From Candidatus Binatia bacterium (GTDB lineage Bacteria; Desulfobacterota; Binatia; HRBIN30): a stretch of 64,000 nucleotides of DNA. This document shows positions 13,591 to 44,211 of the stretch, piece by piece (the first letter of the stretch is position 1; every line of letters begins with the position of its first letter). The notes beneath the pieces were generated by a model, which saw nothing but the letters and a program-made list of their open reading frames with translations, was not told where the DNA came from and did not search any database. A program made the position numbers and the translations under genes. The stretch covers positions 3,354-67,353 of the forward strand of contig JBHHYR010000001.1 of the NCBI GenBank assembly GCA_046757585.1, written 5' to 3'.

Positions 13591-14559
13591 TCAACCCCCC
13601 CGTCTGCACGTGTGGGTCCAATCCAGCAGGACGGCCCCCGCGGCGAGCAGCCAGGCCCGGCGGGTGGACGGACCCGAGAGGACCCGCGCCGCGAGGGCGC
13701 GCCACGAGACGTCCGTTCCGGACCGCCTGCTCAGACGGATGCGGGCATCGATCCCGTGGTGGTCGGAATATGGCATGTCCCGCCACCAGTTACAGATGAG
13801 GTCCACCTCCGCCTCCGCACGCCATGCCGCATCGTGTCTGGCGAAGACGTAGTCTCTCCAGCGTCCGTGTTTGGCGTTGCGGTCGAAATGTGTCCCACAG
13901 TTGGGCAGCTGCGTGGTCAGATCCTGCCAGGCGAGGTGTTCGACCATCGTATCGTACAGCGGAGCAGCGGGACGGACATTGAAATCGCCCGCGATGAGCA
14001 CGGGCACGCCCGGCTCGACACTGGACGCCATGGTAGCAAGCTGTTGCACTTGGGCGCTCCGCACGGCGGCGTACGCGCCGCCCGACTGCAAGTGTGTGTT
14101 GAGAATGACGAGCGTCTGGCGCGAGGGGCGATGGCGCAGGTCGAGCCGTTGGATGCCCTTGTCCGCATACCCATCCCCGTGCCAGATGCGGTACTCGCAT
14201 TCCTCCGCGTCAAACTTCTCGAATCGCGCCTGCAGGACATCCCACTTGTGGGAAACGAACGCCAGCAGGCCGCCCTTGCGGATCCTCATGAAGAGCCCTG
14301 CGAGATCCACGAAGGGCAGAAACCACGGCGGAAAAGGTTTTGTGGGAATCCCGCCCACGCGCTGGTAGCGCGCACCCAGGGTGCGTTCAAGCAAGTCTGC
14401 ATCGGCCGGGTAGAAGATCTCTTGCAAAACCACAACATCAGGCAGCGGCTCGATATCGAGAATGCGCTGTGCCGCAGCCCGCATCCGGGGCTGGCGCAGC
14501 CGGGACGTGATCGGCGCGCCGTGCAGGTTCCAACAGATGAGCCGCACCCGGAGTGTCAT
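13591..14559 (-). CDS. endonuclease/exonuclease/phosphatase (EEP) family protein, sphingomyelinase/phosphodiesterase-like
   Basis: LICWNLHG...VVVLQEIF...LNTHL...IAGDFN...SDHHG are the canonical EEP catalytic blocks. The start could be 14559 (ATG) or 14595. Confidence 0.75.
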   Translation of the reverse strand: MTLRVRLICWNLHGAPITSRLRQPRMRAAAQRILDIEPLPDVVVLQEIFYPADADLLERTLGARYQRVGGIPTKPFPPWFLPFVDLAGLFMRIRKGGLLAFVSHKWDVLQARFEKFDAEECEYRIWHGDGYADKGIQRLDLRHRPSRQTLVILNTHLQSGGAYAAVRSAQVQQLATMASSVEPGVPVLIAGDFNVRPAAPLYDTMVEHLAWQDLTTQLPNCGTHFDRNAKHGRWRDYVFARHDAAWRAEAEVDLICNWWRDMPYSDHHGIDARIRLSRRSGTDVSWRALAARVLSGPSTRRAWLLAAGAVLLDWTHTCRRGG

Positions 14560-14916
14560 GATCGTCAGGCTACCGCCGGTGCCCCACAAATCCAATCCAT
14601 CCGCATGTGATCCGAGCTTGAGGGCGGGGGGACTGGAATTTGCGTTCGGTTTTTGCGATATGGGCGTTCCAGCAGCCAGACGGGAAGGTTCTTCAGATGA
14701 GCCCGGTTTCTAGTTCGAAAGGGGCAGGCCCCTTTCACCTTGAACGGAACGACCAAGCGGAAGCGAGACGGCGCGCGGCGTAGGCGCATAGCAGCTTCCG
14801 AGAGGTTGGGCGACACGCCACGACTGCACGATCATGATGGCCAACAGGAGGAAGGGGTCGACACCCCTATTGACAGAATGTGCGCAAGCTGGGTAACGAA
14901 AGCCGAGGGGGAGACT

Positions 14917-16278
14917 GTGGGGAAGGGGCTCAAACAGACGCGCGCCGGCCGGCAGCCTGTGAAGAGAAGAGCCGCCACGCCAGAGCGCGTCGAGCGCAAG
15001 AGTTTCCGAACGGCCTTCCTGGAGCCGTTTCGTCCGTTACTGGAACAAATTGATGCTGCGCGGCAGGTGAACGTATACCCGTTCTACCCGTGCGTCGAGC
15101 CGCGGTCACCCTCGAACGGCTCTGCGGAGGCCCGCCAGGAGATTGTCCTGGTGGCGAACGATTACCTCGGCCTCGGGATGGATGGGCGTGTCCGCGACGC
15201 GGCACGCGAGGCGATTGCACGGCTGGGAACGAGCCGCTGTGCTTCCCCGCTGGCCGGCGGGTACACCGCGCTCCACCGCACCATCGAAGCCCGCCTCGCG
15301 GCGTTTCTGGGTCAGGAGGCCGTCGCGCTGTTTGCGTCCGGCTACCAGGCGAACGTCGGCATCATCTCGGCGCTGATGCTGCGCGGCGATCTGATCGTCA
15401 CCGACTTGTTCAATCACGCATCGATCGTGGACGGGGCGCGCTTGTCCGGGGCTGATGTCCGAGTGTTTCAGCACAACAGCCCGACACATCTCAGGCGCGT
15501 TCTCGAGCAGCATGCCAAGGGCCGGCGCGCCCTCGTGATCGTGGAGGGAATCTACAGCGCTGATGGAGACATCGTGTGCCTGCCTGAGATCTGTGCGGTG
15601 GCACACGCGCACCGGGCGTTGGTCATGGTCGACGAAGCGCACTCCCTCGGAGTCCTGGGACAGGCGGGTGCCGGCGCCGCCGAACATTTCGGCTGCCTGC
15701 ACGAGGTCGACCTCATCATGGGCACGATGAGCAAGTCACTGGCCAGCGTCGGCGGGTTCATCGCCGCCGACAGGCACTTGGTCGAGGTCATCCGGCACAA
15801 TGCCCGCTCTCTCATCTTCTCCGCGGCCTTGCCGCCCGCCGGCGTGGCGGCAGCGTTGGTTGCCTTGGAGATTCTCCAGGCCGAGCCGCAGCGACGCGAG
15901 CGGCTGTGGCACAACGCACGACGAATGGTCGGCGGCCTGAGGACACAGGGGTTCGACACGATGCGCAGTGAAACGCCGGTGATCCCCATCCTGGTCGGTG
16001 ATCCGGTACGGACGCTCGAGTTCACCGCCCGACTGCGCGACCGCGGCGTCCTGGTGTGCCCCGCCATCCCGCCGATGGTGCAAGGCCACCTCAGCCGGAT
16101 ACGCGCACATGTGACGGCCGCGCACGACGACGCCACCATCGATGCAGCGCTCACGATCATCGGTGACGTCGCAGCCGCTATTGGATTTCATGAGCACCGG
16201 CCGCGCCGGCAGCCTACCGCCCTCGCGGACGCCGTGCTGTCCGCACCACGTCCGGTATCACCGGCCAGCCCGCGATGA
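14917..16278 (+). CDS. alpha-oxoamine synthase family PLP enzyme, serine palmitoyltransferase-like
   Basis: ANDYLGL, SGYQANVG, IVEGIYSADGD, VDEAHSLG and the PLP-lysine block GTMSKSLASVGG. Start proposed at GTG 14917, behind a GAGGGGGAG RBS; the six-frame ORF begins at TTG 14740. Confidence 0.85.
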   Translation: MGKGLKQTRAGRQPVKRRAATPERVERKSFRTAFLEPFRPLLEQIDAARQVNVYPFYPCVEPRSPSNGSAEARQEIVLVANDYLGLGMDGRVRDAAREAIARLGTSRCASPLAGGYTALHRTIEARLAAFLGQEAVALFASGYQANVGIISALMLRGDLIVTDLFNHASIVDGARLSGADVRVFQHNSPTHLRRVLEQHAKGRRALVIVEGIYSADGDIVCLPEICAVAHAHRALVMVDEAHSLGVLGQAGAGAAEHFGCLHEVDLIMGTMSKSLASVGGFIAADRHLVEVIRHNARSLIFSAALPPAGVAAALVALEILQAEPQRRERLWHNARRMVGGLRTQGFDTMRSETPVIPILVGDPVRTLEFTARLRDRGVLVCPAIPPMVQGHLSRIRAHVTAAHDDATIDAALTIIGDVAAAIGFHEHRPRRQPTALADAVLSAPRPVSPASPR

Positions 16279-16294
16279 CCAGGCGGTCAACCCG

Positions 16295-16675
16295 ATGAGT
16301 CAACTCCACGTGGTCCCCCGCCGATCTCGGCCGACGTTGCCGACGATTGCGCAGGTGAAAGAAACGCTCCGACGCCTGATTGAAGAGCAGGCGGGCATTC
16401 CCGCCTCCGTCATCCGGGACGATTCCACCATCGAGGGAGACCTTGCGATGGATTCGCTGTCGTTCATCTCTCTCCAAGTGGCAGTGGAAGAAGTCTTCGA
16501 CATCACCTGCGACCCGGCGGATATCGAGGCGCGGAACCGTTTCGATGCAATCGCGGCGTTCATTCGCGAGCAGACCGGCGCCCGGAACGGCGCGGCACCG
16601 CAGCCACCGGCAGGTGGCGCTCGGCAGGGTGCATCGGGGCGCCGCGCGCGCGGTAGGCCCCGCTCCAAGAGCTGA
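16295..16675 (+). CDS. acyl carrier protein (dedicated), with Arg/Gly-rich tail
   Basis: GDLAMDSLSFISL carries the DSL phosphopantetheine-attachment serine. The gene lies between the oxoamine synthase and the AMP-ligase. Confidence 0.8.
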   Translation: MSQLHVVPRRSRPTLPTIAQVKETLRRLIEEQAGIPASVIRDDSTIEGDLAMDSLSFISLQVAVEEVFDITCDPADIEARNRFDAIAAFIREQTGARNGAAPQPPAGGARQGASGRRARGRPRSKS

Positions 16676-16687: not shown

Positions 16688-18517
16688 ATGGTTCGGAAGA
16701 AGACAGCGGGGCTGCCCGGGTGGCAGCCAGGGGGAAAAATGGGCACAACCAAGACACCGGCAGTGCTCCCCGTCACCGGGGCGGCATTGGTTCCCGCGGC
16801 AGACACGTTGGTCGAATGCTTTGCACAGCAGGCACGGGACCGCGCCAGGGTCGCGTTCTGGCTCGAGCGCGTCGACGAGCTTCCGCGAACGGTCAGATGG
16901 GCGGAGCTGGCAGACTCTGCCGCCCAGGCCGCCCTGCGCCTGCGTGCACTGGGCGTGGAGCGAGGCGACCGCGTGCTGCTGGTGTTGCCGACCGGTGCCG
17001 ATTTCGTCTTCCTCTTTTGGGGTGTGTTACTGGCAGGGGCCACACCGGTTCCGGCCTATCCTCCGGCCGGCTGGCGGCAACTCGCGTCATTTTCCGACAT
17101 GCTAGCAGGCATGGCAGCGATGACTGATGCCCGCCTCGCGGTCGTCCCTGACGCTCTGCGGGACATGTTGGCAGCCAGCCCCCATCAGGAACTCCGGAAC
17201 ACGAGCGTCATCGCCCCGGAGCAACTATGGGCCACCGCGGTGAGCGCTGCGGCGCTGCCGCCCGCAGCCGCCCCCGGGGATTTCGCTTTGATCCAGTTCT
17301 CCTCGGGCAGTACCGGGGCGCCGCGCGGCATCCGTCTCACCCAGACGAATCTCCTCTCCAACATCCGCGCGTTCGCAGATCGCATGCGCGTGCGGCGCGA
17401 AGATGCACTGGTGACGTGGTTGCCCCTGTATCATGACATGGGACTGATCGGCACCATGATCGCCCCGCTGATCGTGGGGATGCCGCTGATCTTGATTCCT
17501 CCCACGGACTTTCTGCGTCAACCAGGCTTCTGGCTACGGACCATGGCGCAGTATCGAGCCACCATTAGCGTGGCACCTCAGTTCGCTTACAGCCTGTGTG
17601 CAAGGAAAGTCGACCCACACGAACTGGCAGGGGTGGACTTGTCGCCGCTGCGCATCCTCTTAAACGGGGCGGAACCGATCCGTCCGGACGCGGTGGCGGC
17701 GTTCGAAGAACGCTACCGGGTGCTCGGGCTCCGGCGCGGCGTGGTCACTCCCTGCTACGGTCTGGCTGAGGGCACCCTAGCCGTCTGCATGCGGCCGCCG
17801 GGTGGCAGGCTGTTTGTCAAGCACCTGTACGGCAACGGTGAAGGACCCGCGTCGAAAGCGGACGGTATGGCGTACGGCGGACCCGTCGTTTCCGTGGGGC
17901 CCCCACTGGCAGGCACCGAGGTGCGCATCCGCGCTCCACGGGGTGGATGGCATCCCGAGGGACGGGTGGGTGAAATCTGCGCTCGCGGGTCGTCGGTCAG
18001 CCAAACGCAGCTCACGCATGACGGCGTTGCACCGACGGTCGACCGGGACGGCTGGTTGCACACAGGAGACCTCGGGTTTGTTTCTCACGGGGAACTCTTC
18101 GTGACCGGACGACAGAAAGACCTCATCATCATCGGCGGGCGCAATCTCTATCCGCAGGAAATCGAGGAAGAGGCAGGCAGACTCCCAGGGTTTCGCACCG
18201 GCCGTGTCGCCGCCTTCGGTGTCCTGGACCCGGACCGTGGAACCGAGGTGCTCGTGGTGACCGGGGAGACCAGCGGGACACCCAACAGCGACCCGACGGT
18301 GGCAGTCAGTCACCTGCGCCGGCAACTCCTGCACCGCTTCGGCGTGGCCCCGTACGACATTGTGTTGCTGGGCCGCGGCCAGCTCCCTGTCACCACCAGT
18401 GGGAAGCTACGCCGGTTTGAAGCCCGGGCGGTTTACGAGCGTAACTTGTTTTCCGATGTAAGCTACCGGCTACGTCCGGTGCCAGTCGAACGGCTCGCGG
18501 AGGCCGGCCAGCGGTGA
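16688..18517 (+). CDS. fatty acyl-AMP ligase / acyl-ACP synthetase (AMP-binding family)
   Basis: AMP-binding core FSSGSTGAPRGIRLTQTNL, YGLAEG, TGDLGF and a GRQKDLIIIGGRNLYPQEIE block typical of the FAAL subfamily. Confidence 0.85.
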   Translation: MVRKKTAGLPGWQPGGKMGTTKTPAVLPVTGAALVPAADTLVECFAQQARDRARVAFWLERVDELPRTVRWAELADSAAQAALRLRALGVERGDRVLLVLPTGADFVFLFWGVLLAGATPVPAYPPAGWRQLASFSDMLAGMAAMTDARLAVVPDALRDMLAASPHQELRNTSVIAPEQLWATAVSAAALPPAAAPGDFALIQFSSGSTGAPRGIRLTQTNLLSNIRAFADRMRVRREDALVTWLPLYHDMGLIGTMIAPLIVGMPLILIPPTDFLRQPGFWLRTMAQYRATISVAPQFAYSLCARKVDPHELAGVDLSPLRILLNGAEPIRPDAVAAFEERYRVLGLRRGVVTPCYGLAEGTLAVCMRPPGGRLFVKHLYGNGEGPASKADGMAYGGPVVSVGPPLAGTEVRIRAPRGGWHPEGRVGEICARGSSVSQTQLTHDGVAPTVDRDGWLHTGDLGFVSHGELFVTGRQKDLIIIGGRNLYPQEIEEEAGRLPGFRTGRVAAFGVLDPDRGTEVLVVTGETSGTPNSDPTVAVSHLRRQLLHRFGVAPYDIVLLGRGQLPVTTSGKLRRFEARAVYERNLFSDVSYRLRPVPVERLAEAGQR

Positions 18518-18539: not shown

Positions 18540-19493
18540 TCAGCGAAAAGCCCGCTTGCGATAGAGACGCCAGAATACGCTGCCCAAGGCAAGCAAACGA
18601 GGGCGTCTGCTACGCCAACTGGGATCTGCCCTCACACCGGAGTGGCGCTCGATCTTCCAGAGCACGTATTCGACACCCCCTTTGAAGGTGAAGGCTCCTT
18701 TGAGAATGCGCAGCAACGAGAGCAGCTTGCCTTCAGCGCGGCGCAGTCGCCAGCTGTGGCAGGCCCCCCACCGCGCTAGGGCTGGCATGCGCACTACCAC
18801 CATTGGCGCGCCGGACACCGTGTCGATCGACGTCGGATAAGGCAAAGCAGCCAGCGCAGCCTGCGTGACACGTTCGTACCGGAGGGGGGCGGCATCATAG
18901 AGACGGGCGGGGGTCTCTCCCCGTTCTGCCCGCACCTCGGAGTGGTAACTTTCCCGCAACACCCGTTTCCATAGATCCGCGATCCGGAAATGCTGCGGCA
19001 CGAGCGCAACACCCTGCCGGATGAAGGTCACCACCGCCGTGCTCAAGGCGTTGGCCACAGCCTCCGCAGCCGCTGCATTGCGCGTGTAAACGAGCGCGCA
19101 CGGCTGGGCAAAGCGGGCCCAAAAGTACGGATGAAAACAGCGAGCTGACGTGTAGCGGGCAAGACCAGCCAGGGACACCACCGCGTACTTCGCGCGCACG
19201 GGACCACTCTCCCCAGACGCCTCGATGTAGAAGACGTTCGGCGGAAGCAGCGCGTTCAACAGCGCCCAGATCCGACGCGTGTAGAAATGCCGGTAGTCGT
19301 CGACAAGGACATAGAAGTCCAGAACCCCATTACGATCGTCACCGGTCCGCAAGCAAGAGCCGTAAAACAGAATGGCCTGGACCGCCCTGCCGTGGCGCCG
19401 GCGAATTGACTCAGCAAGCACCTGCGCCCCAGCCGCAACGGGCTGGCGCAACTCTTCGGCGATCAACTCAACCAGGGCGGGTTGGGGCTCCAA
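18540..19493 (-). CDS. nucleotidyltransferase-fold protein, Tam41/Mmp37-like (putative lipid-phosphate cytidylyltransferase)
   Basis: FYGSCLRTGDDRNGVLDFYVLVDD (an NTase G-S...D-x-D-like signature), followed by VRAKYAVVSLAGL....HPYFWARFAQPCALVY. This resembles the Tam41 KYGVVS...LYLAGRLQKPV region. TTG start, 6 nt after the kinase stop. Confidence 0.45.
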   Translation of the reverse strand: MEPQPALVELIAEELRQPVAAGAQVLAESIRRRHGRAVQAILFYGSCLRTGDDRNGVLDFYVLVDDYRHFYTRRIWALLNALLPPNVFYIEASGESGPVRAKYAVVSLAGLARYTSARCFHPYFWARFAQPCALVYTRNAAAAEAVANALSTAVVTFIRQGVALVPQHFRIADLWKRVLRESYHSEVRAERGETPARLYDAAPLRYERVTQAALAALPYPTSIDTVSGAPMVVVRMPALARWGACHSWRLRRAEGKLLSLLRILKGAFTFKGGVEYVLWKIERHSGVRADPSWRSRRPRLLALGSVFWRLYRKRAFR

Positions 19494-19499: not shown

Positions 19500-20585
19500 C
19501 TACCATCGCAGAAACAACGCCGAGTGGCCACCGCGCAGGACGACGGGCCGGCCCGGCTCAGCAGTGAACAATTCCCCGTCGAGCGTGAATCCGCCATCCA
19601 GATGCAGGAGCACCTCGTGCACGTTGCGACTCACGTAGCCGAACTCCGGGCGGACGTACCGGTTCGGCCTGCCGCGCATCACCGACCAGGCGGCTCGAAC
19701 GCAATGCTGCGGCGCATAGGTGAGGGCGCTATAGCGGAGTGGGCCGGCGCCCCGACCCCAGAACGGCCGCAGACCGAGGAGCAGTCGCTCCAGCGTTGTC
19801 GCCAGGATCCCAAAATACGCGTTGGCCGCCAACGCCTCGTGGTCCAGCCGGCCCCAGGCTTGCAACGGCGGAAACAATGCACCGCCACGTCCCAGCATGG
19901 CTCTGGCCAGGAATACGGCTAGGGCAAGCCCCGGTCCCGCATCGCGGCGCATGCCCAGCGGGTGGATGCGCTGGCGACAAAAGCGAATCCCGTGGTAGAT
20001 CGCTCCCGCCCCGAAGAACATGCCAAAGATGGGCTCCGCGGACGGCGTCACGTCCACGCGCATGACCGCCCGTCGCACGACTACGCCGTCGAGCCGGCCC
20101 GACCGGGCAGAGCCGAGAAGATGTTCCAGGGCTCTGATCGGCCGCTGCCCTGTGCCGACGTCGCCGGCAATCATGTTCGTCGTCCCTCCCGGCAGCACGG
20201 CGAGCAACGGAAAACGTTCCAGGTGCGGCTCCCGGAACAGCGCGGTCAGCACCGCTTGGACTGTGCCGTCCCCACCGTTGACGACAATGATCTCGCTACC
20301 CTCACGTGCGAGCCTACCAGTGGCCGCCTCGATGTCTGCCGGTTGCTCGACCTCGTAGTGCGGGACACCCGGAGTTCCCCCCATGGCCCGCAAAATGGAC
20401 TGAAAGCCGTTGCTGCGCAGATTACGCCCGCTGGCGGGATTGTTGATTGCTCCGACGCGAATGGGGCGTCCGGAATCGAAGGGACGCAGGATCGCCGGTC
20501 GGGCCGGCACCGGCGCGCTACTGGGCGGGGTCTCGACTGCCCGGCGATGCGCCTGGAATCTGGCGAAGCGCGCTAGCGAGCTCAT
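19500..20585 (-). CDS. DAGK-catalytic-domain lipid kinase (diacylglycerol/sphingosine/ceramide kinase family)
   Basis: NPASG....IIVVNGGDGTV...LAVLPGGTTNMIA are the DAGK_cat motifs. The internal ATG at 20585 overlaps the upstream stop (ATGA); the six-frame ORF is over-extended to 20909. Confidence 0.8.
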   Translation of the reverse strand: MSSLARFARFQAHRRAVETPPSSAPVPARPAILRPFDSGRPIRVGAINNPASGRNLRSNGFQSILRAMGGTPGVPHYEVEQPADIEAATGRLAREGSEIIVVNGGDGTVQAVLTALFREPHLERFPLLAVLPGGTTNMIAGDVGTGQRPIRALEHLLGSARSGRLDGVVVRRAVMRVDVTPSAEPIFGMFFGAGAIYHGIRFCRQRIHPLGMRRDAGPGLALAVFLARAMLGRGGALFPPLQAWGRLDHEALAANAYFGILATTLERLLLGLRPFWGRGAGPLRYSALTYAPQHCVRAAWSVMRGRPNRYVRPEFGYVSRNVHEVLLHLDGGFTLDGELFTAEPGRPVVLRGGHSALFLRW

Positions 20586-21832
20586 CCCAGTCCCATTACG
20601 TGTGGCCGAACCGTGGGGTGTGGCACAAATGGCCTGGACACACCGGACGCGTCGCCCGCCACCCCCTGCGGCACCGCGAGCCACGGGCGTAGTGGACCGC
20701 ATGTGGTGCGCCGATGCACCGCCATGGTCAGCCGCACACTGAGAAACACCGCGCACGTCAGAGTCCAGGTGGCCACCGCCATGATCCCAACGTCTGGCGC
20801 GAGCAACCCGCCCGTAAGCAGGGTGAGATTCGGATTCCGGCGTGCCAGGACGAGCCGGGAATACGAATCGATCGGACGCCAACAAAAGAGCGAGAACCTC
20901 CCCACCCACAACGTAAACGCGCCTTCAACCAGACGGCCGACAACGTACCCAACCACAACCGTTCCCAGCACGAGATCAAGGGTCAGTCCCTCCAACGGCG
21001 CTTGAAACTCCTCGAGCCCCATTCCCCACGCGAGGTACCAGAAGGGCGGGTGAATGATGTCGAGCCCGTGATCAAGGGCATGGCCGATGGACGTCGAGCC
21101 AACCGTCACCCGTGCCAGCTTGCCGTCAACGGTATCCAGAAAGGTCATCAACCAGGCCAAGCCGAGGCCGAACCCATAGCGCCCCGTGGCAAACAGGAAC
21201 GTGACCATGACGACGAGGAGCACGCTGAGGATGGTCACATGGTTGGGACGAATGCCCGCGCGGGTACAGAGGTGGGTGGCCCAGCGCGCGGGCGCCGGCC
21301 AGAGCCATTTCGTGACAAAATCAGTCACACCCTTATACGAGCCGTTGAACAGATGGCGCTCGAGCGCCGCCCGACGGTCCGGGCCGATGCGCACGACAGT
21401 TGCAGGCTCCGACCTGAGCAGCTTTTCGTCGTACGCTTCAGACAGGGCATCCGGGAACTTTATCTGGATTCCCGGCATCTCCTGGGCGCCTGCCTCCCCG
21501 TGCAGCCAGCGCCGGGCCACACACGCACGTGCGCTCGACACGTGCGCCGCGACGCGAATTGCTCGGCCACCTTCGTGAACCTGCAGGCCGACATTTGGGG
21601 CACCGACAAGGTCTCTGATGACCCGTTCGTCATACAGATAATCGGCCCGGACGAAAATGACGGTAGCCGCAGGATCCAGCTCGTCGGTTTCGCTGGCCAG
21701 GCCAGCCACACCCGCACGCTCGAACACACGCTGCAGCCGCTCCGCGGACGACAGCCCCCACAGGCGAACGTTGCACTCGCCCACGATACACCCGTACACC
21801 TTCGTTGCATGATCGCGGCCTGGTGACGCCAT
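20582..21832 (-). CDS. CDP-alcohol phosphatidyltransferase with about 170-aa N-terminal cytoplasmic domain
   Basis: DTVDGKLARVTVGSTSIGHALDHGLDIIH fits the CDP-alcohol phosphotransferase signature D-G-x2-A-R-x7,8-G-x3-D-x3-D. Several TM helices follow it, and a soluble domain precedes it. Confidence 0.8.
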   Translation of the reverse strand: MASPGRDHATKVYGCIVGECNVRLWGLSSAERLQRVFERAGVAGLASETDELDPAATVIFVRADYLYDERVIRDLVGAPNVGLQVHEGGRAIRVAAHVSSARACVARRWLHGEAGAQEMPGIQIKFPDALSEAYDEKLLRSEPATVVRIGPDRRAALERHLFNGSYKGVTDFVTKWLWPAPARWATHLCTRAGIRPNHVTILSVLLVVMVTFLFATGRYGFGLGLAWLMTFLDTVDGKLARVTVGSTSIGHALDHGLDIIHPPFWYLAWGMGLEEFQAPLEGLTLDLVLGTVVVGYVVGRLVEGAFTLWVGRFSLFCWRPIDSYSRLVLARRNPNLTLLTGGLLAPDVGIMAVATWTLTCAVFLSVRLTMAVHRRTTCGPLRPWLAVPQGVAGDASGVSRPFVPHPTVRPHVMGLG

Positions 21833-22060
21833 CAAACACTCCTCGCCTCCGCAGTCAGTCCTCGCCTGGTTAGGCCCCTTATCATCAACCCGCCCCGCAA
21901 GACAAAGGGCTCCACCTGTTGAGAATAGTAGCGCAATGAGTCAGATGCGCCAGTTGGCTTCCCGTTGCACGGGTCCAGGGCGCAAACCTACCGTACGCAT
22001 AAGCAGCCCGATCATCGTCTTTCACGCCAGCTTATCTGATCCGATTGTTCCGGTTGCGGC

Positions 22061-22174: not shown

Positions 22175-23239
22175 TCAGCGTACTCGCTGCATCAGCCACA
22201 GGCCAAGCGCCAGCGCCAATGCTCCCGGCAACGTGGCGCTGGCGATCGGATCGAGGCCAAAGACCAGGCCGAACTCTGCAAAGGTCTGGTTGAACATCTG
22301 GAAGCCGATGCCGAGCAAGGCTCCGAGGACGATCCGCTGTCCCACCCTCACTGAGGTCCCAGCGACGAGTACCAGAGGCACAGCCAAGAACATCATGATA
22401 CCCGTGATCAGAGGCAGCGTGATCCGCTTCCAAAATGCGATCTGGTAGCGGCGTGGGCTCTCGCCCCGTGCCCGCAGCGAACGGATCGACCTGTACAGGT
22501 CGTACAGTGACAGGTATTCCGGCGGAAAGGACAAGAGCCGCAGCTGTCGCGGGCTCACAAACTTCTTCCACACCCGCGTGGCCACTTTCCGGGTAGTCAC
22601 CACGTCGTTGCGGATCCGGCCCTCCACCAGTTCCTCGAGCGTCCACTGGTGGTTCGCGTAGGAGGCTGTACGCGCATAGGCGAAGGAGTCCAGCCGGTGC
22701 TGCGCATCAAACTGGTAAACGTACAGATCGTGCAGCTGTGCGCCCGGCAACGGCGTGCGGACGTTGATGAAGCGAGAGCCGTCTCGCGTCCAAAAGCCAT
22801 TCGCTGTGCTCAGCGCTAAACCGCCCGACAGCACAATCGAGCGTTGTGCCGCGGCTTGTTGCGCCAGCGGGGCGGCAGCGAACTCGCCGACCCCGACCGC
22901 CGCCACGACGAGCCAGGCGGTCACCTTCATGACCGACCAAATCAGGCGACCCGGCGCGATGCCTGCGGCCCAGACGGACACCAGTTCGTTCCGGCTCGCG
23001 AGGGTACCAAGGGCACTGACGCCGCCAAGCAAGGCGGCAGCCGGAAAGAGTTCGTAGGCCTCGCTGGGCAGTGTCATGAAGACGAACCATAACGCCTGTC
23101 GCATGCCGTACTGCGCTACGCCAACGTCTTCGAGCTCATGCATCAAGTGAATCACGGAAAAGATCGCGAGGAGGGCAGCGAGGGCAGCGAGGAAGTCCGC
23201 CGCCACTACAGTTGCAAGGTAGCGATCGAGCGTTTTCAT
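22175..23239 (-). CDS. lptG: LPS export ABC transporter permease LptG
   Basis: MKTLDRYLA... N-terminus, six predicted TM helices and a periplasmic beta-jellyroll region, typical of the YjgP/YjgQ family. Its ATG overlaps the lptF stop (ATGA). Confidence 0.8.
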   Translation of the reverse strand: MKTLDRYLATVVAADFLAALAALLAIFSVIHLMHELEDVGVAQYGMRQALWFVFMTLPSEAYELFPAAALLGGVSALGTLASRNELVSVWAAGIAPGRLIWSVMKVTAWLVVAAVGVGEFAAAPLAQQAAAQRSIVLSGGLALSTANGFWTRDGSRFINVRTPLPGAQLHDLYVYQFDAQHRLDSFAYARTASYANHQWTLEELVEGRIRNDVVTTRKVATRVWKKFVSPRQLRLLSFPPEYLSLYDLYRSIRSLRARGESPRRYQIAFWKRITLPLITGIMMFLAVPLVLVAGTSVRVGQRIVLGALLGIGFQMFNQTFAEFGLVFGLDPIASATLPGALALALGLWLMQRVR

Positions 23240-24438
23240 CGATCGCGAGCAGCGGCGCGATCGGCCTGCCATCGCGCCACTCGGTGACGCAACCGGCCGG
23301 GCGTGCGGCGCCACCACCGAGCAGCAGGCACGGCGGCAAAGCCGGCGAGGATCCCAGCCAGACACAGCGCGTGCACACCCCAGATGCCTGGAAAAGGCGG
23401 CAGTGTCCCGTGTGCTACCCAATCCTTGGCCGCGCCCAGGAGATGGCGGTAGGCCATGTAGAGAAGGATGGCGGCAAACAGCTTGGCGTATTTTCCACGG
23501 TACGGGTCCACCCGGCTGAGCGGCAATGCGATCAGCACCAGGAGGAGGGCCGACACGGGCATCGCCAAGCGCCACTGCAGTTCGGCGATATCCGCTGGGG
23601 CGTCCGACCGCAGGAGCGCGAGGGTGGAGCGCGCCTTTTGCCGTCGCTCACCCGCCGTCTCGGCCTGCAACGCGGTACGGATCGTGAGCGTTCGGTAGCG
23701 TGTGATTTCATACCTGCCCGTTTTCGGATGCAGGTCGTAGCGGTATCCATCCACCAGCGTGAGGAAGCGGTAGCCGGTAGCTTCATCCACATGTTCCGCG
23801 GCGTAGTTCGAAACCAGAATCGACACCTGCCCGTCGTGTCGATCTTGCAGGAACACGTCTCCCATGCGTCCGTCGGCTGTGCGGTGGTCCGCGAAAATGA
23901 CCTGCGCACCTCTGCGGCCGATCTCGTAAAACCGCCCTGGACTCAACGCACCAACGTCCAAGTCGCGCGCGGCATGAGTCTTTACATGCTCGAACCGGCC
24001 GGCCGCCCAGGGACGCACGGAGAGCGACATCCCGCCGATCACGGTTGCGGCAAACAGCGCAAACCCGAGCACGATGTAGGGAACACGGCCCGGTGCCACG
24101 CCGCACGCTTCCAGGGCCGTGATTTCGTTGTCCTGGAAGAAGCGGCCTAAGCCGAGCAGCACCGCAAGGTAGAGCACGACCGGCAAGAGAGAAGGAAAGG
24201 CCATGATCGTTCTGAGCGCGAGCAGATGCAGGATGACGTTCGCCGGCAAGGCGCCTTCCGCCGCATCGGTCAGGAGGCTGCCGAACCGGCGGATGAGAAA
24301 AATACCGAGAACGACGGCCAGGACGCCGACGAAGTGAATCAGGATTTCCCCGATCACGTAGCGCGGTAGGACCGGCAGCAACCTTCCGGCACCCACGCGT
24401 CCGACCCAACGTGGCGATACGCTCCCTGGGCAGGTCAT
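23236..24438 (-). CDS. lptF: LPS export ABC transporter permease LptF
   Basis: LPRYVIGEIL... YjgP/YjgQ-family pattern, paired with lptG. Its ATG overlaps the upstream stop (ATGA). Confidence 0.78.
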   Translation of the reverse strand: MTCPGSVSPRWVGRVGAGRLLPVLPRYVIGEILIHFVGVLAVVLGIFLIRRFGSLLTDAAEGALPANVILHLLALRTIMAFPSLLPVVLYLAVLLGLGRFFQDNEITALEACGVAPGRVPYIVLGFALFAATVIGGMSLSVRPWAAGRFEHVKTHAARDLDVGALSPGRFYEIGRRGAQVIFADHRTADGRMGDVFLQDRHDGQVSILVSNYAAEHVDEATGYRFLTLVDGYRYDLHPKTGRYEITRYRTLTIRTALQAETAGERRQKARSTLALLRSDAPADIAELQWRLAMPVSALLLVLIALPLSRVDPYRGKYAKLFAAILLYMAYRHLLGAAKDWVAHGTLPPFPGIWGVHALCLAGILAGFAAVPAARWWRRTPGRLRHRVARWQADRAAARDR

Positions 24439-25643
24439 GTCGCGCGCACGACGAACAGCGCGATCCCCAGGGTGACCAACGCCGCGGAGGCGAATCGGCG
24501 GAGGCGGCCTTCCATGGAGACAGCCGTGAAACGGCGGAAGAGGCCGAACAGGGCCAGCACCAATGCCAGAGCCACCAGCTGACCGGCCTCTACGCCGAGG
24601 TTGAAGCCGGCGAGCACGGGGACCAGCGCACCCCGTCCGATCTCCAGGTCGCTGATCGCGCCCGCGAAGCCGAGGCCGTGAATGAGACCAAAGGCCGAGG
24701 CGGCCAACCAGGGGAGCGCGCGTGGATAGAGCCGTCGTTGGCTGGCACGCATGTGCGCCAGGGAGAACAGCATGACGCCGAGGAGCGCAGGCGCAGGGAC
24801 CGACAGCCAGCCGCTCGCGCTCGCGGCGAGGGCCACAATGGCAAAGGCCACGAGCGCGGCGCGGCCGTGCGCCAGCAGCGGTTCGGCCGCCACTACAGCG
24901 ACGCTCAACCCGATGAGCGCTTCGACCGCGGCCGCGCGGTCCACCGTGATCAGCCGCCCCAGCGCGAGACCCAGCGTGAGGCTGTGGCCCAAGGTAAAGC
25001 CGGTCACGGCGCGCACCACCGCACCGAGTGACTCGGCACTGAGAAGCAGCGCCGCCAGGAAGGCGAGATGATCGTAGCCGGTGGCGATGTGCGTGACCCC
25101 GAGCAGAAAGAAGCTGGCCAGACCGTGGTCGCCCAGTGCCCGGCCCCGGTGAGCAAGCGAGAGGGTTCGCTGTGTATCGGACAGCACCGCTTCGTGACTC
25201 GTGACCGTCCCGCCCGCGGCACGCACGCGGACCCGCGCGATGTGCATGTGCGACGGCGCCTGGTCAAAGAACGCGCCGAACACAATGGTATCCGCAGAGC
25301 CACCGGGGCAGCGACTCTGCCAGCGATACACGAGCGCATTCGCCGGACCGGGGAGTCGTTCGGGATGCGATACGGCCGGACACGGCCTGTTCCGGACCAG
25401 GGCAGACACGTGCGCGACGAGGTAGGCACCCAGTGCCTCCTCTGGTGCCGAACCGGGCACCAGGTCGCCCAGCGTCCCGACGCCCATCGCGGGCGCCGCC
25501 CGGGCGATTTCGAGCCACGGCACCTTGAGCCGCACGGTGACCGTCTCGCCCGCGATGTCCCAGATGGAATAGGAGGTGCTCCGGGCATGTGCGGACACCT
25601 GAGCGGGCCAGAGTAGCGGCACGCCGAACAGGAGCGCCGCCAT
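24435..25643 (-). CDS. HupE/UreJ-family membrane protein with extra N-terminal periplasmic domain
   Basis: C-terminal half: GVTHIATGYDHLAFLAALLL...GFTLGHSLTL...GLIHGLGFA, the HupE/UreJ signature. The start is taken at ATG 25643 (signal-like MAALLFGVPLLWPAQVSA). The 619-aa six-frame ORF overlaps the next gene. Confidence 0.7.
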   Translation of the reverse strand: MAALLFGVPLLWPAQVSAHARSTSYSIWDIAGETVTVRLKVPWLEIARAAPAMGVGTLGDLVPGSAPEEALGAYLVAHVSALVRNRPCPAVSHPERLPGPANALVYRWQSRCPGGSADTIVFGAFFDQAPSHMHIARVRVRAAGGTVTSHEAVLSDTQRTLSLAHRGRALGDHGLASFFLLGVTHIATGYDHLAFLAALLLSAESLGAVVRAVTGFTLGHSLTLGLALGRLITVDRAAAVEALIGLSVAVVAAEPLLAHGRAALVAFAIVALAASASGWLSVPAPALLGVMLFSLAHMRASQRRLYPRALPWLAASAFGLIHGLGFAGAISDLEIGRGALVPVLAGFNLGVEAGQLVALALVLALFGLFRRFTAVSMEGRLRRFASAALVTLGIALFVVRAT

Positions 25644-25662
25644 ACACCACGACTGGCACCAA

Positions 25663-30021: not shown

Positions 30022-30532
30022 GGTGGTGAGCAGCACGCTGTGAAAATCCGGCCGGTCGAGATCTCTGCCTGAGTCGGAGGAAGGACCGGAAAATCTTCTT
30101 TGCTGCCGGATTCGCGGAGTTGGGAAGCAGGTATCTCATGTCCCGACGAGCAGGTCGCGCATGCGATTGGCACTTTCCTCAACCAAGCTCAGCGAGCGTC
30201 TCGTTCGCGCCAATCCACGTTTCAGCGTCCTGCTCGGCGGTGAAATAGCCCCGCGTGCCCACCCGCCTTTTCGCGCCGCATATTGAAGTGGTCGGGCGGT
30301 CTGGAACCTGTAACACTGATTGTTCTCCAACGCGTACTCCCCTGTCCGTGGCTGTGCTGGTAGCACGGAACTGCGAGCGACAGCAACCCGCCGAGGTACC
30401 CTGACCGCCGGGAAGAACGGGTTGCCCATGTGAGGCGGGACTTTCATACCCCACCGGGCGCGGCGCTGGATGGAGCCCGCGCGCTACACCATGGCGCGCA
30501 CGAACGATACTCTCTTGCGGCGAGGTGGCGAG

Positions 30533-31534: not shown

Positions 31535-31536
31535 GG

Positions 31537-32457: not shown

Positions 32458-32511
32458 GGTGTCGCCAGATGCACGCGCATGCGAGCCTGCTTGTCCGCAC
32501 GGATCTGAACG

Positions 32512-33288: not shown

Positions 33289-33299
33289 GGCGGGCAAGT

Positions 33300-33468: not shown

Positions 33469-33483
33469 CCCGTGGTGGACGCG

Positions 33484-41201: not shown

Positions 41202-41312
41202 AGCGCCACCCGTGTGGTCTTGTAGCAGGATGTGTGTGGAAGCGACACCTCCACGCGCCTTGACATTGTGGCCGCGCTGCGCGCATCTCTACCCTGGTCG
41301 ACCGCGAAGCCT

Positions 41313-42536
41313 ATGAGTCCGAATGTCGCCTCCGAGGCCCCGCCGGCCGCATCCCCACGGCAGGAGGGGGCGGCCCGCCGCGGTGGCGAGCCCGCGCGGG
41401 CAACGCCGCCCGTGTATGCGCTCCCGGTCCAACATCGTCGCGACCGGACCCGCTTCATCAAAGTACCGTGGTCGGTCTACGCGGACGATCCGGTCTGGGT
41501 ACCGCCCCTCGTGGTGGAACGCCGGCAGCATCTATCGCAGCGCAACCCGTTTTTCGCCCACGCGCGGGCGCAGTTCTGGGTTGCCTACCGGCAGGGCCGG
41601 CCGGTCGGCCGCATCAGCGCCCAGGTGGATGACCTGCACCTGGAGCGTTATCACGACGCGACGGGCTATTTCGGATTTCTGGAATGCATCGACGATGGCC
41701 CGACGTTTCACACCTTGTTCACGGCCGCGGAAGAATGGCTGCGCCAGCAAGGCATGCGGCGCGCGATCGGGCCGTTCAACTTCTCCATCAACGACGAGTG
41801 CGGCCTGTTGATCGACGGTTTCGATACCCCCCCCATGTTCCTGATGGGCCACGGTCGTCCTTACTATGATGAACGCGTCAAGCAGCAAGGCTACCGAAAG
41901 GCCAAGGACACCGTGGCATATCTCCTCGCCACGGCGCAGTCGCCCCCCGCGGTCATGCAGGCGACCGTCCGCCGTGCCGGCTCGGGGCGCATACAGGTTC
42001 GCCCGCTGCGCCTCGCACATTTGCGCGAGGACCTCGACATCTTGCGCGACATCTTCAACGATGCCTGGTCGGACAACTGGAACTACACCCCGTTCACAGC
42101 CGCGGAATTGGCGGGGCTTGGCCAGAGCTTGAAGCTGTTTGTCCCGCCCGAGTTCGTGCAGATCGCGGAAGTGGACGGCATCCCCGCAGCAATGATCGTC
42201 GTAGTACCGAACCTCAACGAAAGCATTCGCGACCTCGGAGGTCACTTACTCCCGTTTGGCTGGCTGCGGCTGCTGTGGCGCCTCAAATGGGCCGGGCCAC
42301 GGACAGGCCGTGTGCCCCTGATGGGCGTGCGGCACGCGTATCAGCGCAGCTCGCTGGGCATGGCGTTGGTCTTCCTCCTGGTCGAGGCGGTGCGTGGCCC
42401 GGTGGCGCAACGCGGCATCGAACAGATGGAGCTCTCCTGGACGCTCGAAGACAACCGGGCGATGCGTCACATCAAGGAACGCCTCGGCGCTCGTTTGTAC
42501 AAGACCTACCGCATCTACGAAAAGACCTTGGTCTAA
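41313..42536 (+). CDS. GNAT-fold-like acyltransferase family protein (uncharacterised)
   Basis: Conserved N-terminal pattern FIKVPWSVYADDPVWVPPL....RNPFF.HA....WVAYR.GRPVGRISAQ.D plus GPFNFSINDECGLLIDGF. I recognise this as a family usually annotated as N-acetyltransferase. Recalled from memory, not searched. Confidence 0.5.
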   Translation: MSPNVASEAPPAASPRQEGAARRGGEPARATPPVYALPVQHRRDRTRFIKVPWSVYADDPVWVPPLVVERRQHLSQRNPFFAHARAQFWVAYRQGRPVGRISAQVDDLHLERYHDATGYFGFLECIDDGPTFHTLFTAAEEWLRQQGMRRAIGPFNFSINDECGLLIDGFDTPPMFLMGHGRPYYDERVKQQGYRKAKDTVAYLLATAQSPPAVMQATVRRAGSGRIQVRPLRLAHLREDLDILRDIFNDAWSDNWNYTPFTAAELAGLGQSLKLFVPPEFVQIAEVDGIPAAMIVVVPNLNESIRDLGGHLLPFGWLRLLWRLKWAGPRTGRVPLMGVRHAYQRSSLGMALVFLLVEAVRGPVAQRGIEQMELSWTLEDNRAMRHIKERLGARLYKTYRIYEKTLV

Positions 42537-42577
42537 AGACACGGGCCGTCCATCTTCAGGCGTCAGAGGCAGGCACG

Positions 42578-43420
42578 TTGCACGAATCGGAACCGGGAGA
42601 GGACGGCGTCTCAGGCAACCATTTTACCGCTCTGGTCCTGGCGGGGCGCCGTCCTAGTGGCGATGCGTTTGGCCGGATCACCGGCGTGTCTGATAAAGTA
42701 CTGATTCCTGTCGCCGGTGTGGCAATGTTGGTGCGGGTCGTTCGGACGCTGCGCGCCGCGCAATACGTGAACCGGGTCGTCGTTTGTGGAGTCGACGCGG
42801 CGATGCTTGCGGACCAGATGGAGCTCCGCGCATTCATGGACGCCGGAGAGGTGGCACTCCTGGACAGCCGGGCAACGCCCAGCGCCAGCGTGTTGCACGC
42901 TCTGGACCGGCTGCCGCAGTGTGTGCCGCTGTTGGTCACAACCGCGGATCATCCCTTACTGACCGCGGAAATGGTCGACTACTTTTGCAAGGCGGCGTTG
43001 CAGACTGGAGGCGACGTCGCCGTGGGACTGGTGGGTGCAGACGTGGTGCGCGCCGCGTTCCCGGAGTCCAAACGCACGTATCTGAGGTTTCGCGCCCAGG
43101 CCTACTGTGGGAGCAATCTTTTCGCGCTGCTGAGTCCCGCGGCGCGGCGTGCGCCCGCTGCGTGGATGCAGGTTGAGCAATACCGGAAACGACCTTGGAA
43201 GATGGTGCGCGCCTTGGGAGGCGTCGTGCTGCTCCGCTTTCTGCTGGGACGCCTGACGCTCGACGCCGTCGTCCGCTTGGCGTCCCGCAGGATCGGTATC
43301 CGGGCAGCTCCGGTCATACTCCCCTATCCCGACGCTGCTATCGACGTCGACACGCCGAAGGATTTGGCGCTGGCCGAGGCTATCCTGCGCCAGCGCGGGG
43401 AAACCGGACAGCGGCTCTGA
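42578..43420 (+). CDS. MobA-like NTP-transferase-domain protein
   Basis: ALVLAGRRPSGD...KVLIPVAGVAML...LLVTTADHPLL resembles NTP_transf_3 proteins. Start uncertain (TTG 42578 proposed). Confidence 0.5.
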   Translation: MHESEPGEDGVSGNHFTALVLAGRRPSGDAFGRITGVSDKVLIPVAGVAMLVRVVRTLRAAQYVNRVVVCGVDAAMLADQMELRAFMDAGEVALLDSRATPSASVLHALDRLPQCVPLLVTTADHPLLTAEMVDYFCKAALQTGGDVAVGLVGADVVRAAFPESKRTYLRFRAQAYCGSNLFALLSPAARRAPAAWMQVEQYRKRPWKMVRALGGVVLLRFLLGRLTLDAVVRLASRRIGIRAAPVILPYPDAAIDVDTPKDLALAEAILRQRGETGQRL

Positions 43421-43467: not shown

Positions 43468-44211
43468 CTACTGCCGCTCCATGATCTGCCACCTGGCAAC
43501 GAACTCGTGCGCTTTCCTGAGATCCTGCGGAAAATCGATCTCCATCCACTGCTGCGCATCGACGGATACAGCTTGCACGTGGCCGCGTTGCGCCAAATCG
43601 TTGATGACCGACAGGTACCAGAGGCGTCGCGCGCCCGGCTCCATCACGGCTGCTTCCAGTGCCTCACGGAATAACCCGGGCCCGGCACCCCGAAATATCA
43701 GCATCCCGATCGATTCGCCGTGGGTTTCCTGTGGAGGTAGGTCCTTTCCGATGCCGAGCAACGTGCGGCCATCGCAGCGCACTTTCATGTCGTCCGCGTC
43801 GTACGCGCCTTTGCGGCCGATCGCGACGGTGATGGGGGCGGGCTCGCTGGCAAGGAGCTGGCGCAGCACCGCAGCCTCGAACAGCGTGTCCCCATTGAGG
43901 AGAATGAAATCATCGTGCATGGCTTGGCGGGCCACCCAGCAACTCACCAAATTGTCCGCCACGTGGAAGAAGGGATTGTGCACCGTGTCGATCTGCGACG
44001 GCCGTGCACACGCCTGCGCGAGGGCTTCCTGGACCTTGCTGGCCGCAAACCCGACGACGACGGTGACCTTGCGGACGCCGCACGCCGCAAGCTCCTGCAA
44101 TTGCCAGTCGATGATTCGTTGACCCGCAACCGGCAACAGACACTTGGGCTGGCTGGCCGTCAGAGGAAGCAGGCGCTTACCTTGCCCAGCATTCAACATG
44201 AGCGCGTTCAC
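43468..44211 (-). CDS. sugar-/alcohol-phosphate nucleotidyltransferase (LicC/GlmU-N-like)
   Basis: MLNAGQGKRLLPLTASQPKCLLPVAG is the G-x-G-x-R-L nucleotide-binding signature. At 247 aa it is a single-domain protein. Confidence 0.78.
   Translation of the reverse strand: MNALMLNAGQGKRLLPLTASQPKCLLPVAGQRIIDWQLQELAACGVRKVTVVVGFAASKVQEALAQACARPSQIDTVHNPFFHVADNLVSCWVARQAMHDDFILLNGDTLFEAAVLRQLLASEPAPITVAIGRKGAYDADDMKVRCDGRTLLGIGKDLPPQETHGESIGMLIFRGAGPGLFREALEAAVMEPGARRLWYLSVINDLAQRGHVQAVSVDAQQWMEIDFPQDLRKAHEFVARWQIMERQ

Follow-up and report, generated by a model that had tools for sequence, protein, structure and literature searches.

In Caulobacter, the lipids of the ceramide phosphoglycerate (CPG) pathway can partly replace lipopolysaccharide and determine sensitivity to polymyxin and colistin. 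One step of this pathway stands without assigned chemistry, i.e., that of the protein CpgC (CC_1161/CCNA_01219). Here we describe a gene of Candidatus Binatia bacterium (assembly GCA_046757585.1, contig JBHHYR010000001.1) located at positions 18540..19493 of the window, by which we mean the whole stretch of 64,000 nucleotides that was analysed, and we compare this gene and its surroundings with the Caulobacter locus. Judged from its sequence relatives and gene neighbourhood, the encoded protein is very probably an orthologue of CpgC and belongs with it to the superfamily of Tam41 (Mmp37), the mitochondrial CDP-diacylglycerol (CDP-DAG) synthase.

The Caulobacter locus encodes one or more nucleoside triphosphate (NTP) transferases, bCerS, LptF2/LptG2, a HIT protein, a metallophosphoesterase, the CDP-alcohol transferase CpgA, the ceramide kinase CpgB of the DAG kinase family, CpgC (a "hypothetical protein"), Spt, AcpR, CerR and AasR (PMC11324152), and LptF2/LptG2 were reported in 2026 as required for sphingolipid transport (bioRxiv 10.64898/2026.04.12.717747). 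Caulobacter deleted for cpgC loses CPG and CPG2 and retains ceramide phosphate (PMC9393093), and it is this genetic evidence that places CpgC after ceramide-1-phosphate. The protein was initially reported without conserved domains (PMC9393093), and CC_1161 was described in 2024 as bearing the Tam41 domain IPR015222 (PMC11324152 and its S1 Text). In the same study, Olea-Ozuna et al. proposed that CpgC could give rise to an NDP-activated ceramide, writing of "NTP/NDP" and not of CTP (PMC11324152). The relationship to Tam41 and a possible nucleotide activation by CpgC are therefore already published, and the window gene adds a member to a genetically defined family. Our own literature search combining Tam41, bacteria and sphingolipids returned nothing relevant.

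The window repeats much of the Caulobacter arrangement. Its gene order of CDP-alcohol transferase, kinase and Tam41-like gene equals that of CC_1159-1160-1161, Neut_1104-1105-1106 and Avin_44350-44360-44370, in line with published orthologue tables that list this triplet in the same order for Nitrosomonas eutropha (Neut_1104-1106) and Azotobacter vinelandii (Avin_44350-44370). Counterparts of spt, acpR, aasR, bcerS, lptF2/G2 and cpgD are all present in the window, with cerR as the exception.

Relationship to Tam41

The original prediction had read a 317-aa protein from positions 18540..19493, and this open reading frame (ORF) is indeed present, on the minus strand and with a TTG start. It is a genuine conserved gene and not a chance ORF because the protein has 2371 homologues at E<=1e-3, because an alignment of 30 homologues that are 48-59% identical to it contains 37 invariant columns (mean column identity 59%), and because its GC content by codon position (GC3 0.72 vs GC2 0.51) is similar to that of the neighbouring genes. 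The closest relatives (55-59% identity) come from uncultured metagenome-assembled genomes labelled Binatia, Rokubacteria, "bacterium" and others, and part of the homologues are annotated elsewhere as "predicted nucleotidyltransferase".

Searches with the single sequence gave nothing significant, i.e., phmmer of the window protein against the PDB returned zero matches at E<=10 and Pfam and NCBIfam at default thresholds assigned it to no family, so that profiles and structure prediction were needed. Even at E<=10, PF09139 (Tam41_Mmp37) was the sole Pfam family to match (12.3 bits, E=0.11, residues 99-196), and NCBIfam returned nothing. The same family was matched at E<=1 by 15 of the 30 close homologues (best 3.3e-9), and several homologues bear a precomputed PF09139 match. 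When a profile of the family was searched against the PDB (hmmsearch), the top sequences were those of S. pombe Tam41 (6ig2/6ig4) at E=0.008, followed by kanamycin nucleotidyltransferase at E=0.08 with a match to the N-terminal ~40-50 residues only. Alignment of the window family with three Tam41 sequences by hhalign gave a probability of 83.9% (E=7.8e-6) over 167 columns. This Tam41 set comprised sequences of S. pombe, S. cerevisiae and Firmicutes, two of them read from PDB alignments; used as bait against the PDB, the S. cerevisiae sequence retrieved 6ig2/6ig4 at ~1e-54 and 7ecd at 2e-29. Identity to SpTam41 is 20% (38/190) in hhalign and 13-15% in Foldseek structural alignments. The comparison with Tam41/Mmp37 profiles that had been suggested as a check thus comes out in favour of the family, with a sub-threshold match for the window protein itself and agreement between its homologues, the family profile and hhalign.

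Structure prediction leads to the same family. The AlphaFold2 (AF2) model of the window protein (pLDDT 89.3, pTM 0.87) is a soluble alpha/beta protein with the two-domain architecture of Tam41, i.e., a nucleotidyltransferase (NTase) domain followed by a winged helix. In a Foldseek search of the PDB, the top four folds were Tam41 chains (E 1.1e-9 to 6.8e-9, TM 0.48-0.60, 277-301 aligned columns), well above the aminoglycoside nucleotidyltransferases that followed as the next family with ANT(4') at E=4e-5 and TM ~0.3. The Firmicutes Tam41 7ecd was neither retrieved from the PDB by the family profile at E<=10 nor found among the top 50 folds, from which we take the window family to be a separate and more divergent branch.

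The active site is conserved as well. The segments from which the kinship had been proposed by eye are all where they were claimed to be, with FYGS at residues 43-46, KYAVVSL at residues 102-108 and FWARFAQP at residues 124-131, and the window protein keeps the active-site signature of Tam41 (YGS, the single Asp, KY, YxxxRFxxP, SYxx[DE]xR and Y..[D/E].R..E). Of 51 columns that are invariant in Tam41, 14 hold the same residue in the window family with a conservation of at least 90%, compared to 0-3 in shifted registers. These are Y44-G45-S46, D59, V64, K102-Y103, Y123, R127, P131, A153, Y183, R188 and E190, and their counterparts in the numbering of 6ig2_A include Y72/G73/S74 for Y44/G45/S46, D91 for D59, K150/Y151 for K102/Y103, Y170 for Y123, R174 for R127, P178 for P131, Y225 for Y183, R230 for R188 and E236 for E190. 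In addition, E186 of the window protein lies opposite a Tam41 Asp.

One detail of the original prediction did not survive, i.e., a D-x-D motif after FYGS. The strand reads L58-D59-F60-Y61-V-L-V-D65-D66 and has no literal D-x-D; D59 is the sole invariant acidic residue on the strand after the G-S loop, and an invariant Y61 takes the place of the second NTase acidic residue. In hhalign, D59 is aligned with the lone conserved Asp of Tam41 (I-D-F-I). Since Tam41 likewise retains a single residue of the NTase acidic triad (PMC11646218), the missing D-x-D is a Tam41 trait and no defect. The last 80 residues (238-317) are helical in the model and contain 20 K+R vs 4 D+E as well as many W, F and L. 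By its composition, this basic helical C-terminus is compatible with peripheral membrane binding of the kind described for the C-terminus of Tam41 (PMC7018664).

An assignment to CdsA was rejected, given that the window protein has no CdsA-family match in Pfam or NCBIfam at E<=10 and a soluble alpha/beta fold in its predicted model. The earlier impression that the protein resembles Tam41 and not CdsA is therefore upheld, with Tam41 as the best match by both profile and fold.

Gene neighbourhood in the window and beyond

We surveyed contigs of one genome per species and confirmed at least 589 relatives of the window protein, and we assessed the neighbours of the best 80 loci by tblastn with the window proteins, counting for each comparison the loci with enough flanking sequence. 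At 65 of 75 loci, the kinase gene immediately precedes the Tam41-like gene on the same strand, a CDP-alcohol transferase lies upstream at 43 of 68 and LptF/G at 44 of 64, and a gene for serine palmitoyltransferase (SPT) or fatty acyl-AMP ligase (FAAL) is found within 10 kb at 24 of 39. The best 80 loci belong to Desulfobacterota, Nitrospirota, Nitrospinota, Rokubacteria, Binatia, Calditrichota, Myxococcota, Spirochaetales, and Alpha- and Gammaproteobacteria, with Desulfoprunum benzoelyticum DSM 28570 and Pelagibius marinus as cultured carriers; Methylomirabilota/Rokubacteria also occur among the at least 589 species-representative genomes. The lipid-gene context that the original prediction had read from this one locus is therefore real and strongly conserved, and the outcome that would have spoken against Tam41, i.e., unrelated NTases as the best matches and no lipid genes nearby, was not seen.

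Two plasmids connect the window to Caulobacter. The p1 megaplasmid of Roseomonas mucosa carries the genes of the Caulobacter CC_1152-CC_1165 locus in largely the same order, and plasmid pPNP1 of Pseudomonas sp. JS425 has most of these genes in rearranged order. In R. mucosa p1, a hypothetical protein encoded downstream of cpgA- and cpgB-like genes occupies the CpgC slot and is 38.0% identical to the window protein (E=1e-42), that of pPNP1 is 36.7% identical (E=2e-45), and that of Qipengyuania (Sphingomonadales) is 32.7% identical. At the locus of "bacterium KF840" (GCA_019637795.1, 3907-11940; 58% identity), SPT, LptF and LptG genes, with SPT joined into the unit, are followed by an opposite-strand ATP-grasp gene, a diacylglycerol kinase (DAGK) gene, the CpgC-like gene and then a Lipid_DES/FA_desaturase gene of the sphingolipid-desaturase type, and there is no CDP-alcohol transferase within 10 kb. 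We conclude from this locus that the kinase and the CpgC-like protein form the conserved core and that CpgA is dispensable for the module.

Plasmid pPNP1 itself has a size of 125 kb and an IncP replicon, and is typed as non-mobilizable. Its near-complete cluster for sphingolipids and phosphosphingolipids contains spt, acp, cerR, FAAL, lptFG, kinase, cpgC-like, cpgA-like and cpgD-like genes and lies beside an IS5 transposase and a class 1 integron integrase, and the location of such a cluster on a plasmid suggests horizontal spread of the pathway. A further plasmid, NZ_CP065408.1 of Diaphorobacter sp. JS3051, gave a sequence match to the cpgC-like protein only.

In the window, the genes of the putative pathway are distributed as follows:

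14740..16278, plus strand, start probably later: serine palmitoyltransferase-like alpha-oxoamine synthase (PF00155, E=1e-51)
16142..16675, plus strand: acyl carrier protein (ACP), AcpR-like (PP-binding domain PF00550, E=1.8e-9, residues 74-141 of the mechanical ORF; ACP NCBIfam matches)
16688..18517, plus strand: fatty acyl-AMP ligase, AasR-like acyl-ACP synthetase (PF00501, E=2.5e-60; NF006624, 406 bits)
18540..19493, minus strand: cpgC-like gene, Tam41-superfamily nucleotidyltransferase of 317 aa (Pfam, profile, hhalign, AF2, Foldseek)
19500..20585, minus strand: cpgB-like lipid (ceramide) kinase, DAGK_cat (PF00781, E=1.6e-16; YegS/LCB5-type NCBIfam matches)
20582..21835, minus strand: cpgA-like CDP-alcohol phosphotransferase (PF01066; 42-44% identity to CpgA-like proteins of the plasmid clusters)
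22175..23236, minus strand, start approximate: LptG-family permease, probable sphingolipid-specific LptG2 (PF03739, E=3.5e-61)
23236..24438, minus strand: LptF-family permease, probable LptF2 (tblastn to pPNP1 LptF, 31% identity, E=8e-35; synteny)
41232..42536, plus strand: GNAT-type protein, probable bacterial ceramide synthase (bCerS), CC_1154-like (50% identity over 381 aa to a 385-aa hypothetical protein of Roseomonas, E=4e-113; weak GNAT match)
42275..43420, plus strand, gene ~42600-43420: MobA-like NTP transferase, CC_1153-like (PF12804, E=1.7e-14, domain from residue 120 of the mechanical ORF)
43468..44211, minus strand: CpgD-like cytidylyltransferase, CC_1152-like (PF00483 and PF12804)

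The target is best explained as closing an lptF2-lptG2-cpgA-cpgB-cpgC operon that forms part of an island of sphingolipid biosynthesis genes. The stop codon of the CDP-alcohol transferase gene and the start codon of the kinase gene overlap as ATGA (20585-20582), and the TAG stop of the kinase is separated from the start of the target by 6 nt. A scan for promoters and terminators gave counts at chance level, i.e., 8 terminator-like matches where 6.4 +/- 3.0 were expected for the region, and the gaps between these genes contained none of them. Together, the overlap, the short spacing and the gaps clear of terminator-like matches agree with the co-transcription that had been proposed for the target with a lipid kinase and a CDP-alcohol transferase. 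The fatty acyl-AMP ligase gene is convergent with the cpgC-like gene, with 22 nt between their stops. As regards individual genes, the kinase has a probable ATG start at 20585 (the mechanical ORF reaches 20909) and shares 34-35% identity with its counterparts in the Roseomonas and Pseudomonas clusters, and in the mechanical ORF 22175-23575 the PF03739 match of the LptG-like gene begins at residue 118. The SPT-like protein has serine palmitoyltransferase as its best NCBIfam match (375 bits vs a curated cut-off of 640 bits) and is 40% identical to Roseomonas Spt. The MobA-like NTP transferase is 42-44% identical to nucleotidyltransferases of both plasmid clusters, and the CpgD-like protein is 48% identical to a "phosphocholine cytidylyltransferase family protein" of pPNP1.

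Several other genes of the window may touch on envelope lipids. Directly upstream of the LptF-like gene, a 619-aa ORF at 24435-26294 (minus strand) carries a C-terminal HupE/UreJ_2 domain and ends at the LptF-like start (shared positions 24435-24438), so that both may be transcribed as one unit; Pfam matches nothing in the first 400 residues of the encoded protein. Positions 13591-14595 (minus strand), flanked by an MlaC gene (12707-13384) on one side and the SPT-like gene on the other, encode a protein of the endonuclease/exonuclease/phosphatase family (PF03372, E=3.7e-16), a superfamily that includes sphingomyelinase-type phosphodiesterases. A metallophosphoesterase of the CC_1158 type was not found in the window, either by tblastn with the plasmid-cluster proteins or by Pfam searches of most of the 48 crudely called genes, and the protein at 13591-14595 might therefore take part in head-group processing as a phosphoesterase. 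A second block of envelope-lipid genes spans 28900-44211 and comprises a family 2 glycosyltransferase (GT2), a 2-oxoglutarate-Fe(II) oxygenase, a histidine phosphatase, a GT4 glycosyltransferase, the bCerS-like GNAT protein and the two NTP transferases listed above, together with sulfotransferases at 30533-31534 and 31537-32457, ELM1/GtrOC1-type glycosyltransferases at 33484-34638 and 35370-37907, and an MsbA-type ABC transporter at 39351-41201. ELM1-type glycosyltransferases are also present in the sphingolipid clusters of Roseomonas and Pseudomonas, and the two sulfotransferases are a hint of a sulfated glyco- or phosphosphingolipid. Farther out, positions 8810-10651 (plus strand) encode a PMT_2/GT39-family glycosyltransferase, and a GT39 gene also adjoins the CpgC-like gene on the R. 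mucosa plasmid (L082 10827-12353).

Proposed activation of ceramide-1-phosphate and competing readings

By analogy with Tam41, we slightly favour for the window enzyme the reaction CTP + ceramide-1-phosphate -> CDP-ceramide + PPi, in which the substrates, the product and whatever consumes that product are all inferred. In such a pathway, the cpgB-like kinase would make ceramide-1-phosphate, and the Tam41-like enzyme would hold CTP where its NTase domain meets the winged helix. Catalysis would depend on the single Asp D59 together with K102, Y103, R127, Y183, E186 and R188, and CMP would be transferred onto the lipid phosphate to yield CDP-ceramide and pyrophosphate, analogous to the conversion of phosphatidate to CDP-DAG by Tam41. 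The activated ceramide could then be joined to a hydroxy-acid or alcohol head group (in Caulobacter this would be glycerate or phosphoglycerate), resulting in an anionic phosphosphingolipid of the ceramide phosphoglycerate type. The CDP-alcohol transferase might extend this lipid with CDP-glycerate from the CpgD-like enzyme, and the LptF2G2 paralogues would export the anionic sphingolipid to the outer membrane.

The weak point of this scheme is the consumer of CDP-ceramide, for which the CpgA-like neighbour would be the obvious candidate. Its CDP-alcohol transferase motif is intact (D234xxD237G238xxA241R242...G251xxxD255xxxD259) and is preceded by a conserved cytoplasmic N-terminal domain of ~190 aa. 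The AF2 model (pLDDT 85.9) finds its best folds in AF2299 (TM 0.59/0.72) and in the bifunctional IPCT-DIPPS 4mnd, and the N-terminal part shows a weak fold likeness to the CTP:inositol-1-phosphate cytidylyltransferase 2xmh (E ~0.03). This N-terminal domain has no nucleotidyltransferase match in Pfam or NCBIfam and may be a degenerate or regulatory nucleotidyltransferase domain. The best NCBIfam matches of the CpgA-like protein are phosphatidylinositol phosphate (PIP) and archaetidylinositol phosphate (AIP) synthases, enzymes that use CDP-DAG or CDP-archaeol. For AF2299, we know of no established natural substrates.

Several observations weigh against a CTP:ceramide-1-phosphate cytidylyltransferase or against the orthology on which it builds. 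The characterised member of the CpgA-like architecture, the DIPP synthase of IPCT-DIPPS, takes a soluble CDP-alcohol. A Caulobacter cpgA deletion still produces CPG (PMC9393093), and CpgA has been proposed to use CDP-glycerate supplied by CpgD, the biochemistry of which has been described (PMC12275187). Given that CPG persists when cpgA is deleted and that the CpgA-like architecture suggests a soluble CDP-alcohol donor, the case for the CpgA-like protein as the consumer of CDP-ceramide is weaker than it seems. The enzymatic context invoked by the original prediction is borne out as a lipid context, but the adjacent CDP-alcohol transferase as the consumer of the product is attractive and not secure. 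Furthermore, the window protein stays below the gathering threshold of PF09139 (12.3 vs 24 bits), and its family has a 17-residue gap in hhalign opposite Tam41 "WHKINLQQNPSHYSFVK", i.e., the NPxHYS insert, along with invariant motifs of its own (LLPPNV, YFW[AG]RFAQP with W125 and Q130, and WKIERHSG); with the insert missing and these motifs in place, substrate and chemistry could differ from those of Tam41. The orthology to CpgC is drawn indirectly, from similarity via the Roseomonas, Pseudomonas and Qipengyuania intermediates and from conserved position. A CerR-type short-chain dehydrogenase/reductase or NAD-dependent epimerase was not found by the same tblastn and Pfam searches of the window, and CerR may be encoded outside the window or have a substitute. 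As for the literature, our search returned no relevant paper on CDP-ceramide or a ceramide cytidylyltransferase, and the mechanism of CpgC was still called "yet unidentified" in a 2025 paper in the Journal of Biological Chemistry and in a May 2026 preprint on CpgD (Klein laboratory).

A first rival reading is a CpgC orthologue that acts on ceramide-1-phosphate by other chemistry, be it the use of ATP, GTP or UTP to form a different NDP-ceramide or the direct coupling of glycerate or phosphoglycerate as proposed by Zik et al. The genetics place CpgC only between ceramide-1-phosphate and CPG, the "NTP/NDP" wording of Olea-Ozuna et al. leaves the nucleotide unspecified, and the window family has R49, Y61 and Q130 where Tam41 has Phe, Ile and Lys, in addition to the missing NPxHYS insert. 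CPG is also made without CpgA, CpgD or CC_1153, so that no separate head-group transferase is known. We nevertheless regard such other chemistry as rather unlikely, given that esterification of a phosphomonoester with glycerate would have no energy source (PMC11324152), that enzymes with an NTase fold transfer NMP, and that the motifs shared with Tam41 surround its nucleotide site according to literature summaries (PMC7018664, PMC11646218).

The module might also have nothing to do with sphingolipids if the target were a true CDP-DAG synthase of the Tam41 type that turns kinase-made phosphatidate into CDP-DAG for the adjacent transferase. Tam41 is, after all, the nearest solved fold and the profile match, CDP-DAG is the product of Firmicutes Tam41 (Kimura 2022, cited after PMC11646218), and CpgB phosphorylates DAG too in vitro (S1 Text of PMC11324152). 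The PIP/AIP synthase matches of the CDP-alcohol transferase would suit a glycerophospholipid module, and 15 of the 39 long loci have neither SPT nor FAAL within 10 kb. We consider this improbable, however, because deletion of cpgC in Caulobacter leads to a build-up of ceramide phosphate and a specific loss of CPG, because SPT, ACP, FAAL and bCerS-like genes as well as LptFG paralogues of the sphingolipid type recur in linkage with the module, and because 7ecd, the bacterial enzyme known to make CDP-DAG, is reached neither by the family profile (E<=10) nor among the top 50 folds.

A non-catalytic role, e.g., as a lipid-presenting or scaffold subunit of degenerate NTase fold that serves the kinase, the transferase or LptF2G2, could be read from the presence of only one of three canonical NTase acidic residues and from the sub-threshold Pfam match; it has very little going for it, since Tam41 is active with the same lone Asp, the 37 invariant columns are concentrated at the active-site motifs of Tam41, and the strong and specific loss of CPG fits an enzymatic step. 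Finally, an unrelated minimal NTase (ANT/KNTase-like, toxin-antitoxin or defence) that merely lies near lipid genes is effectively refuted: ANT(4') and its kin are second-tier matches (profile E=0.08-0.6 over ~40 residues, Foldseek 4e-5 to 1e-2) and some homologues are annotated as predicted nucleotidyltransferases, but these matches are confined to the N-terminal NTase core of ~40-50 residues with TM ~0.3 vs 0.5-0.6 for Tam41, the window family has the invariant Y61 in place of the second member of the acidic pair, KY, YxxxRFxxP and SYxx[DE]xR are Tam41-specific, and the kinase synteny (65 of 75 loci) extends over many phyla. A toxin-antitoxin NTase was dropped on the same grounds, i.e., the Tam41-specific motifs, the fold ranking and the synteny.

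A proposed CTP:ceramide-1-phosphate cytidylyltransferase with the Tam41 fold and named candidate catalytic residues is what the profile, fold and active-site evidence adds to the InterPro-based suggestion of 2024. More broadly, and with confidence just short of an even call, CpgC-type enzymes may generally make CDP-ceramide. Bacteria would then have a sphingolipid counterpart of the CDP-DAG (Kennedy-type) pathway with the Tam41 fold at its base, and the module of kinase, cytidylyltransferase and transferase plus LptFG would be a common way of making anionic sphingolipids of the outer membrane. If CDP-ceramide is indeed the product, a fold otherwise known from mitochondria would underlie the activation of bacterial sphingolipids. 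The cpgA-cpgB-cpgC module with lptF2G2 reaches well beyond Proteobacteria, far wider than in published accounts, and thousands of "hypothetical proteins" could be re-annotated as CpgC-like. The window gene itself adds no new principle beyond these gains in distribution and annotation.

Comparison with known systems

The most distant comparison is with CdsA/CarS, with which the window protein would share the type of reaction, in which CMP is passed from CTP onto a lipid phosphomonoester. There is no kinship in sequence or fold, however, and CdsA consists of nine transmembrane helices (PMC7018664) whereas the window protein is predicted to be soluble.

Tam41/Mmp37 itself (TAMM41; 6IG2/6IG4) shares with the window protein the combination of NTase and winged-helix domains, the active-site motifs, and a soluble body with a basic helical C-terminal tail. 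It differs in having the 17-residue NPxHYS insert that the window family lacks, and probably in its substrate, given that context and genetics favour ceramide-1-phosphate over phosphatidate for the window enzyme. The Firmicutes Tam41 (7ECD) likewise belongs to the superfamily, is bacterial and makes a CDP-lipid as a peripheral membrane enzyme (PMC11646218), but it is close to eukaryotic Tam41 (2e-29 to the yeast sequence), while the CpgC-type family is more divergent and found in a different operon context.

The closest described system remains CpgC of Caulobacter. Like the window gene, cpgC is the last of a triplet of CDP-alcohol transferase, ceramide kinase and CpgC, and both proteins are of the same size class (~290-320 aa) with the same Tam41-type InterPro/Pfam signal. 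The neighbours are also the same, with LptF2/LptG2, spt, acp and the acyl-ACP synthetase nearby and bCerS-, CC_1153- and CpgD-like genes in the same island. In contrast to Caulobacter, the window derives from a host outside the Caulobacterales and Sphingomonadales, its SPT, ACP and FAAL genes run convergently to the operon with no intervening CerR, and its island has no CC_1158-type metallophosphoesterase or HIT gene. Instead, it adds sulfotransferases and several glycosyltransferases, owing to which the final lipid may differ from that of Caulobacter.

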